64,000 nt of DNA. It comes from Escherichia coli (GTDB lineage Bacteria > Pseudomonadota > Gammaproteobacteria > Enterobacterales > Enterobacteriaceae). Positions 4,324-4,899 of this stretch are shown one piece after another. The stretch lies in NCBI RefSeq assembly GCF_030384885.1, contig NZ_CP128613.1; one strand, 5' to 3'. How positions within the stretch are numbered: the stretch's first letter is position 1; every line of letters starts with the position of its first letter. Under the pieces are notes generated by a model. It did not search any database, was not told the DNA's origin, and saw nothing but the letters and a program-made list of their open reading frames with translations. Position numbers and translations under genes: made by a program.

Positions 4324-4899
4324 ATGGAATACTTTGATATACGTAAAATGTCGGTGAATCTGTGGCGAAACGCTGCCGGTGAAACCCGCGAAATCTGTAC
4401 TTTTCCACCGGCAAAACGTGATTTTTACTGGCGAGCCAGCATTGCATCCATCGCGGCGAATGGGGAGTTTTCTTTGTTTCCAGGGATGGAAAGGATAGTG
4501 ACGTTGCTGGAAGGCGGCGAGATGTTCCTTGAAAGTGCAGACCGCTTTAAACATACCTTAAAACCGTTACAGCCTTTTGCCTTTGCGGCGGACCAGGTGG
4601 TTAAAGCGAAACTGACGGCAGGGCAGATGTCGCTGGATTTCAACATCATGACACGTCTGGATATCTGTAAGGCGAAAGTCAGAATTGCCGAACGTACGTT
4701 TACTACCTTTGGCTCACGCGGCGGGGTAGTGTTTGTAATTAACGGGGCGTGGCAACTGGGTGACAAACTGCTCACTACTGACCAGGGAGCGTGCTGGTAT
4801 GATGGCAGGCACACCCTGCGGCTTTTACAACCGCAAGGTAAACTGTTGTTCAGTGAAATCAACTGGCTTTCGGGTCATTCACCGGATCAAGTTCGGTAA
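4324..4899 (+). CDS. ves: HutD-family protein Ves
   Basis: Track ORF 4261..4899; start set at ATG 4324 ([29 protein letters not shown]), 191 aa. Confidence 0.85.

Follow-up and report, generated by a model that had tools for sequence, protein, structure and literature searches.

Convergent genes whose coding sequences (CDSs) overlap at their 3′ ends are a described class in Escherichia coli. Lillo and Krakauer 2007 (PMC2174442) counted 58 convergent overlaps in this species and found that, among overlaps longer than 4 bp, the commonest phase was 123:132, observed in 46% of cases against an expectation of 39% from stop-codon mutation alone. The same study noted that rho-independent terminators of convergently overlapping genes are forced into the CDS of the partner, and that only 20% of such genes have one. 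According to Pallejà et al. 2008 (PMC2478687), such overlaps originate by stop loss, and genuine long overlaps occur in the convergent orientation alone. At the level of transcripts, ExcludonFinder (PMC12288877, Nucleic Acids Res 2025) reported 165 convergent excludons of strain MG1655, each detected in half or more of 58 MG1655 transcriptomes, and the pair cho-ves is among them. Termination by RNA polymerase collision has been described for hundreds of E. coli convergent pairs without intrinsic or Rho signatures; it needs a hairpin element and works best for highly expressed genes (bioRxiv 2022.10.23.513370). Finally, Dar and Sorek (PMC6061677) characterized Rho-dependent 3′ ends as a stable stem-loop lacking a U tract, with a Rho loading site immediately downstream.

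We examined the ves-cho junction in a 64-kb stretch of E. coli DNA, hereafter the window. The open reading frame list placed four genes in this region, namely spy (3636–4121, plus strand), ves (4324–4899, plus strand, 191 aa), the SOS repair nuclease gene cho (4859–5746, minus strand, 295 aa, with a GTG start), and nadE (5976–6803, minus strand). The ves reading frame closes with TAA at 4897–4899, and cho closes with TGA at 4861–4859, which reads as “tca” on the plus strand at 4859–4861. The stretch common to both genes is therefore 4859–4899, 41 bp in length, covering Ves residues 179–191 and Cho residues 283–295. This convergent overlap had been described in an earlier note on this DNA, and we could confirm it from the two stop codons and from RefSeq annotation. 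NZ_CP027579.1 is a near-identical genome that runs in register with the window from its position 727608 onward, and RefSeq there gives ves as 4324–4899 and cho as 4859–5746 in window numbering. The RefSeq annotation of K-12 MG1655 (cho 1823515–1824402, ves 1824362–1824937) yields the same 41 bp, and a 41-bp overlap is also annotated in E. coli NCTC9008, tcmA_3, and EC42405. Across complete E. coli genomes, the 1.7-kb ves-cho region was found in 5425 of 5426.

Both ves and cho are genuine protein-coding genes, as judged by family-model matches. Ves belongs to the HutD family (Pfam HutD, E = 2.6e-43) and matched the NCBIfam Ves equivalog at 420 bits over residues 1–190 of a 191-position model. 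Cho matched its NCBIfam equivalog at 575 bits over residues 1–287 (model length 289 positions), and a homologue search returned 3939 Cho homologues. Matches to solved structures were confined to the Ves HutD core (residues 14–149) and the GIY-YIG domain of Cho (residues 22–113), leaving both C-terminal tails outside. AlphaFold2 models built from shallow alignments had mean pLDDT values of 41.5 for Ves and 47.0 for Cho, too poor to judge disorder in the tails.

In most respects the pair resembles those in the published surveys. Ves and cho are two real opposite-strand genes sharing their 3′ ends in phase 123:132, with ves positions 1/2/3 opposite cho positions 1/3/2; the overlap probably derives from stop loss or shift, and the termination signals are pushed into the partner CDS. 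The modal convergent overlap is 4 bp, and at 41 bp ves/cho is longer, yet it remains below the 60-bp range in which artifacts dominate; nothing essential differs. The window holds eight convergent gene pairs, with spacers of −41 bp for ves/cho, +3 bp for both ydjO/tcyP and selO/hemP, and 40–56 bp for the other five. The ves/cho overlap is statistically unremarkable, ordinary, and already annotated. It is also already known, as a member of a class in the literature and as a pair in the excludon catalogue. A second pair from that published list also lies in the window: selO/hemP (ydiE), listed as ydiE-selO, is convergent with its 3-bp spacer at 39234–39238, and its hairpins are not significant (z = −0.35 and −0.71).

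To place the junction in a wider context, we scanned cho loci using one genome per species and located the cho and ves stops in each of the resulting 80 loci. In 53 of these, ves was convergent to cho within 100 bp. A further 22, including Salmonella, Klebsiella, Raoultella, Trabulsiella, Pluralibacter, Buttiauxella, and others, had no ves within 3 kb of cho, and in five loci (the Cedecea group) ves lay ~1.8 kb away. Spacing among the 53 convergent loci ranged from a 48-bp gap to a 73-bp overlap, with the genes overlapping in 48. All 14 loci labelled Escherichia or Citrobacter had exactly the 41-bp overlap seen in the window. Leclercia, Silvania, and one E. asburiae had 32 bp; 15 loci, mostly Enterobacter, had 23 bp; Phytobacter and others had 15, 10, or 7 bp; and in Kosakonia the overlap was 4 bp, a TTAA that constitutes two shared stops. 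Three outliers overlapped by 45 to 73 bp, and five loci had a gap of 3 to 48 bp.

Alignment then allowed us to separate conserved cores from lineage-specific tails. In most genera Ves has 185 aa and ends …LLFSEIxWLPGH, directly followed by the stop; an added SPDxV(Q/R) occurs only in the Escherichia/Citrobacter group. In the window this core ends at H185 (codon 4876–4878), and residues 186–191 (SPDQVR) form the group-specific extension. The Cho core ends …YEI(I/T)EL and is followed by 0–9 non-conserved residues. Its last core residue in the window is L286 (codon 4889–4891), with residues 287–295 (DPVNDPKAS) as the sequence-variable tail. The conserved cores do not overlap: H185 of Ves ends at 4878 and L286 of Cho at 4889, with 10 nt between them. 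The whole 41-bp overlap thus consists of two tails, each crossing the last core codons of the partner. A nucleotide alignment of the junction located 5–10 extra bases (CACCGGATC) in the Escherichia/Citrobacter group at the place where the other genera have their ves stop, at CAT T|GA or CAT T|AA.

These comparisons suggest how the overlap could have formed. Small indels at a junction with almost no spacer would have moved both stop codons and so brought the reading frames into overlap. In most Enterobacteriaceae with ves beside cho, Ves ends at WLPGH and Cho just past YEI(I/T)EL, with stops that touch or overlap by 4–32 bp. Where the Escherichia/Citrobacter group has its 5–10 additional bases (CACCGGATC), Ves reads six codons further, up to a TAA inside the conserved I-T-E-L codons of Cho; on the opposite strand, the nine-residue variable tail of Cho ends within ves codons 179–180. 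We therefore regard the locus as an ordinary tail-to-tail overlap that is quite likely a by-product of junction indels and stop shifts, presumably with no dedicated regulatory role. Against this by-product view, the stops are fixed across Escherichia and Citrobacter despite ~20% divergence of both proteins, and the fixed stop positions could reflect more than inertia; cho-ves is also listed in the excludon catalogue built on RNA-seq data.

The same survey yielded several observations on ves and cho themselves. In EC42405, the second-closest E. coli genome, ves (locus L086, 425–1000) has an internal stop and carries a pseudogene annotation, and the ves of Cedecea neteri (L077) likewise contains a stop in frame. 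Some lineages thus seem able to dispense with ves. Salmonella enterica subsp. arizonae (L007, 3880–3960) has no ves, and its cho stop TAA abuts a reversed spy terminator (taaAGAAAACCGCCGATCCTGTCCACC). There spy is convergent to cho at a distance of 74 bp, providing a clean contrast of ves presence and absence against Escherichia. Enterobacter-like cho genes, with 74–77% identity to E. coli Cho, were also found in records titled Chryseobacterium sp. 18061, Serratia sp. H1w, and Vagococcus sp. WN89Y (L029, L056, and protein P0030), and L029 additionally has an adjoining convergent ves. These records are probably mislabelled or contaminated assemblies.

We then asked which reading frame is constrained in the shared bases, using mean pairwise diversity by codon position among 15 sequences with the 41-bp overlap, a small sample with 35 sites. 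Ves position 2 (opposite cho position 3) had a diversity of 0.031 in the ves-only region, 0.095 in the overlap, and 0.46 in the cho-only region. The corresponding values for ves position 3 (opposite cho position 2) were 0.43, 0.27, and 0.078. Within the overlap, diversity tracks the ves frame, with cho third positions frozen and cho second positions varying, and this pattern agrees with a conserved Ves tail versus a variable Cho tail. Selection in the shared 41 bp acts mainly on the ves frame, and the Cho tail drifts.

Compared to typical E. coli, the allele in the window has 5 differences within the 41 shared bases and differs at ~4% of positions across the ves-cho region as a whole. A divergence hotspot confined to the junction was considered and rejected, as the ~4% difference spans the entire ves-cho region. 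Over 4121–5976 the allele is 99.9% identical to that of E. coli 2013C-4282 and ~96% identical to typical E. coli, with 75–80 differences in 1855 nt, compared to 32 between two typical strains. When a 241-bp junction query was used, 5403 of 5415 genomes fell in the 90–95% identity band. The ves-cho allele looks divergent or imported. Elsewhere in the window, the RefSeq annotation of the matching genome has espL1, encoding a type III secretion effector, at 24055–25953 between yniD and thrS, which points to a source strain with the background of an attaching-and-effacing pathotype.

At a junction lacking any spacer, each transcript has to end within the opposite gene. The earlier note had argued on this geometry that the terminator of either gene must sit within the CDS of its partner; the geometry holds, and the claim was borne out for cho, for which the only strong downstream stem-loop lies in ves codons 163–173. 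A terminator scan returned no intrinsic terminator between 4521 and 5432, overlap included, and an Rfam search of 3500–6500 gave no match in or near the overlap. The stem-loop forms in cho-sense RNA at 4812–4840 (minus strand), 19–47 nt past the cho stop, with a 12-bp stem and a 5-nt loop. Its folding energy is −21 to −24 kcal/mol, with z = −2.55 in a 161-nt context, −3.08 in 62 nt, and a range extending to −3.4. Among all 36-nt windows from the two strands of the 64 kb it ranks in the top 0.04%, and only nine distinct sites are this strong. Six of the eight other sites are at gene 3′ ends, those of chbG, infC, ydiP and ydiO (one palindrome, both strands), hxpB, and tcyP. In ves-sense RNA this sequence reaches no more than −10.5 kcal/mol, since two G-U pairs are replaced there by A-C mismatches. 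K-12, NCTC9008, and four divergent Escherichia lineages all have the stem-loop, at −17 to −24 kcal/mol; Citrobacter lacks it.

The hairpin at 4812–4840 has no U tract, being followed by GUGUGCCUGCC, and so does not qualify as an intrinsic terminator. Directly downstream, at 4712–4811 (minus strand), GC skew identified a C-rich, G-poor stretch of cho-sense RNA whose C/G ratio of 1.76 (4811–4712) exceeds 1.48, the 90th percentile of the window background; by composition, this stretch resembles a Rho loading site. As at the Rho-dependent 3′ ends of Dar and Sorek (PMC6061677), cho has a stable stem-loop lacking a U tract past its stop, with C-rich RNA after it. Unlike those ends, the cho element is a predicted one and lies inside the CDS of another gene. 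The available portion of the K-12 Term-seq data of Adams et al. 2021 (PMC7815308) lists no 3′ end near the ves/cho junction. We suggest that the stem-loop would act as the determinant of the cho 3′ end, with the C-rich RNA promoting Rho-dependent termination and the hairpin protecting the transcript, and that it probably serves as the cho 3′ end. The one new detail at this locus is this Escherichia-specific, strand-specific cho 3′ stem-loop inside ves. As the hairpin is found only in Escherichia, a lineage-specific function of the junction is conceivable. More tentatively, ves codons 163–173 may have a dual use, in which their opposite strand encodes a stem-loop that defines and stabilizes the cho 3′ end and possibly positions polymerase encounters, such that SOS-induced cho would lower sigma-28-driven ves output; we consider this possible, though doubtful.

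Beyond the stem-loop, the spy terminator (4141–4201, plus strand) was found by terminator scan and matches a K-12 Term-seq 3′ end at 1825060, equivalent to window position 4201 (Adams et al. 2021, PMC7815308). Its first hairpin is terminator-like on the minus strand too, so cho transcripts that read through the whole of ves might end there. Of the nine strongest hairpin sites in the window, two lie away from gene 3′ ends: one at 3695–3730 (minus strand) is antisense to the signal-peptide region of spy, and the other at 832–867 (plus strand) lies inside astD, near the astD/astB junction. The tcyP 3′ hairpin (16689–16721, minus strand; −22.4 kcal/mol, z = −3.7) has the form GGCAACGGUCC...GGCCGUUGCC followed by a U-rich tail, and resembles an intrinsic terminator because of that tail. 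It sits in the last 40 nt of the convergent ydjO CDS, forming a second local terminator embedded in a neighbor gene. The two pairs are alike in being convergent, with the 3′ hairpin of one gene within the CDS end of the other; they differ in that the tcyP and ydjO CDSs do not overlap but are 3 bp apart, and in the U-rich tail of the tcyP hairpin.

For ves, no notable hairpin was detected downstream of the stop, where the best fold was −8.8 kcal/mol. A small AU-rich hairpin over the ves stop (4895–4912) has little stability, and folding of the sequence around it lacks significance (z = −1.3). Further along, at 5000–5199 (plus strand), the ves-sense RNA antisense to cho is C-rich and G-poor, with a C/G ratio of 1.6–1.7; at 100–300 nt past the ves stop, this composition makes it a candidate Rho-dependent termination zone for ves. 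Termination of ves is thus probably diffuse and Rho-dependent, occurring 100–300 nt into the cho antisense strand. Four lineages in which the genes are separated by 28 to 48 bp, Enterobacter sp. ENT03, Pseudescherichia vulneris, Escherichia sp. ESNIH1, and UBA7338, have a strong hairpin-forming palindrome separating the stops, with −25 to −32 kcal/mol on either strand. This palindrome is near-perfect and GC-rich, and may be an inserted bidirectional hairpin element.

We also looked at the promoters of the two genes. Upstream of cho, a pattern search located a CTG-N10-CAG palindrome (CTGGTTATCTATCCAG) at 5762–5777 (minus strand), 16 nt upstream of the GTG start, as a presumed LexA box; searching with the full LexA consensus and up to 3 mismatches gave no match in the window, and it was the looser CTG-N10-CAG pattern that found the box. 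We take this palindrome to be the published ydjQ LexA box. Upstream of ves, positions 4244–4271 (plus strand) are an exact match to the ves FliA (sigma-28) promoter motif of Fitzgerald et al. 2014 (PMC4183435), where normalized ves expression was 18 in motile MG1655 versus 0 in a fliA deletion. Regulation of cho by LexA has been reported (PMC3820734). The portion of Adams et al. 2021 (PMC7815308) available also places a Rho-dependent 3′ end 24 nt into the cho open reading frame (K-12 position 1823539, window ~5722) and a bicyclomycin-sensitive site ~270 nt into it (1823784, window ~5477). A sigma-70 promoter scan found no site in 3400–7000, so there is no sign of an internal antisense promoter. 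Both promoters appear weak or repressed in published conditions, ves depending on sigma-28 and cho being LexA-repressed and Rho-attenuated. In the interval that separates the nadE stop from the presumed LexA box of cho, an Rfam search matched the sRNA ES036 (CssrF) at 5854–5896 (minus strand), with 42.9 bits against a gathering score of 37.6; an adjoining REP-like naRNA4 match (5900–5936) is weak and below threshold.

Several other explanations of the junction can be weighed against the by-product reading. Artificial 3′ extensions account for many of the long convergent overlaps in databases (PMC2478687), and the tails of Ves and Cho both run past the ends of their orthologues in other genera, as they would if a wrong stop or a frame error had produced the overlap as an artifact of annotation or sequencing. 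The stops, though, are read straight from the sequence, the choice of start codon is irrelevant to convergent overlaps, and the region is near-universal among complete genomes (5425). The same stops recur in the window, in K-12, in four other E. coli records, and in 14 of 14 related Escherichia/Citrobacter loci. The earlier note had itself named stops lying elsewhere, for example through a frame issue, as what would overturn the overlap; a frame or sequencing error is excluded because both stops hold their position across two genera. We give an artifact almost no credence, and in practice it is already refuted. A further alternative is a functional excludon, in which the overlap is maintained for repression of FliA-driven ves by SOS-induced cho, or of cho by ves, exerted by polymerase collisions or by RNase III cleavage of the RNA duplex. 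Full-length ves and cho mRNAs would unavoidably overlap by at least 41 nt, zero or negative spacing is widespread in the Enterobacteriaceae (48 of 53 convergent loci, and the window), and the ves and cho promoters are independent and condition-specific. The presence of cho-ves in the MG1655 catalogue (PMC12288877) also speaks for it, though an excludon call is near-automatic given a CDS overlap. Like the other catalogued excludons, cho-ves was listed on RNA-seq coverage criteria; unlike classical excludons, which have a long UTR overlap and reciprocal expression, its overlap lies in CDS. A literature search found no data on reciprocal ves/cho expression or on RNase III dependence, and no paper naming ves together with ydjQ. 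Conservation is also at odds with a retained function: spacing varies from the 48-bp gap to the 73-bp overlap across genera, four lineages have an intergenic hairpin instead, no ves lies next to cho in Salmonella, Klebsiella, Raoultella, and others, and that of EC42405 is a pseudogene. Encounters between polymerases should moreover be rare, as ves expression is very low (18 vs 0) and cho is LexA-repressed and Rho-attenuated near its 5′ end. We therefore consider a functional excludon improbable.

A related possibility is that the palindromic stem-loop at 4812–4840 serves as a collision-driven bidirectional terminator, pausing both polymerases such that head-on and trailing collisions set precise 3′ ends. 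Such a mechanism has the published precedent of hundreds of E. coli convergent pairs (bioRxiv 2022.10.23.513370); here a strong hairpin adjoins the overlap, and relatives with a short gap have a perfect palindrome between the stops. The position of the hairpin is nonetheless hard to reconcile with this role, as it precedes the ves stop, and ves polymerases stopped at 4812–4840 would truncate ves. The hairpin is also strand-asymmetric (−21 versus −10.5 kcal/mol), the published model favors highly expressed genes, of which neither ves nor cho is one, and the available K-12 Term-seq entries (PMC7815308) include no sharp 3′ ends at the junction. A terminator of this kind is very unlikely. More generally, coupling of ves and cho through collisions, as raised in the earlier note, would draw on a mechanism that is known in kind, for a pair that is catalogued; a strong effect is unlikely in our analysis because both promoters appear either weak or under repression, transcription inside cho is attenuated by Rho, and several genera have lost ves. 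We thus favor the reading of the overlap as a by-product of stop shifts at a spacerless junction.

The overlap itself matters little beyond bookkeeping, being present in every E. coli annotation inspected, with its consequences for termination discussed in 2007. If true, the cho stem-loop would be a concrete case of a CDS carrying the 3′-end signal of its neighbor, and a functional excludon, if true, would link DNA damage with motility or stress programs. The cross-genus comparison provides a clean small example of how indels at a spacerless junction create and lengthen a convergent overlap, with the cost of that overlap falling on the less constrained partner, here the tail of Cho.
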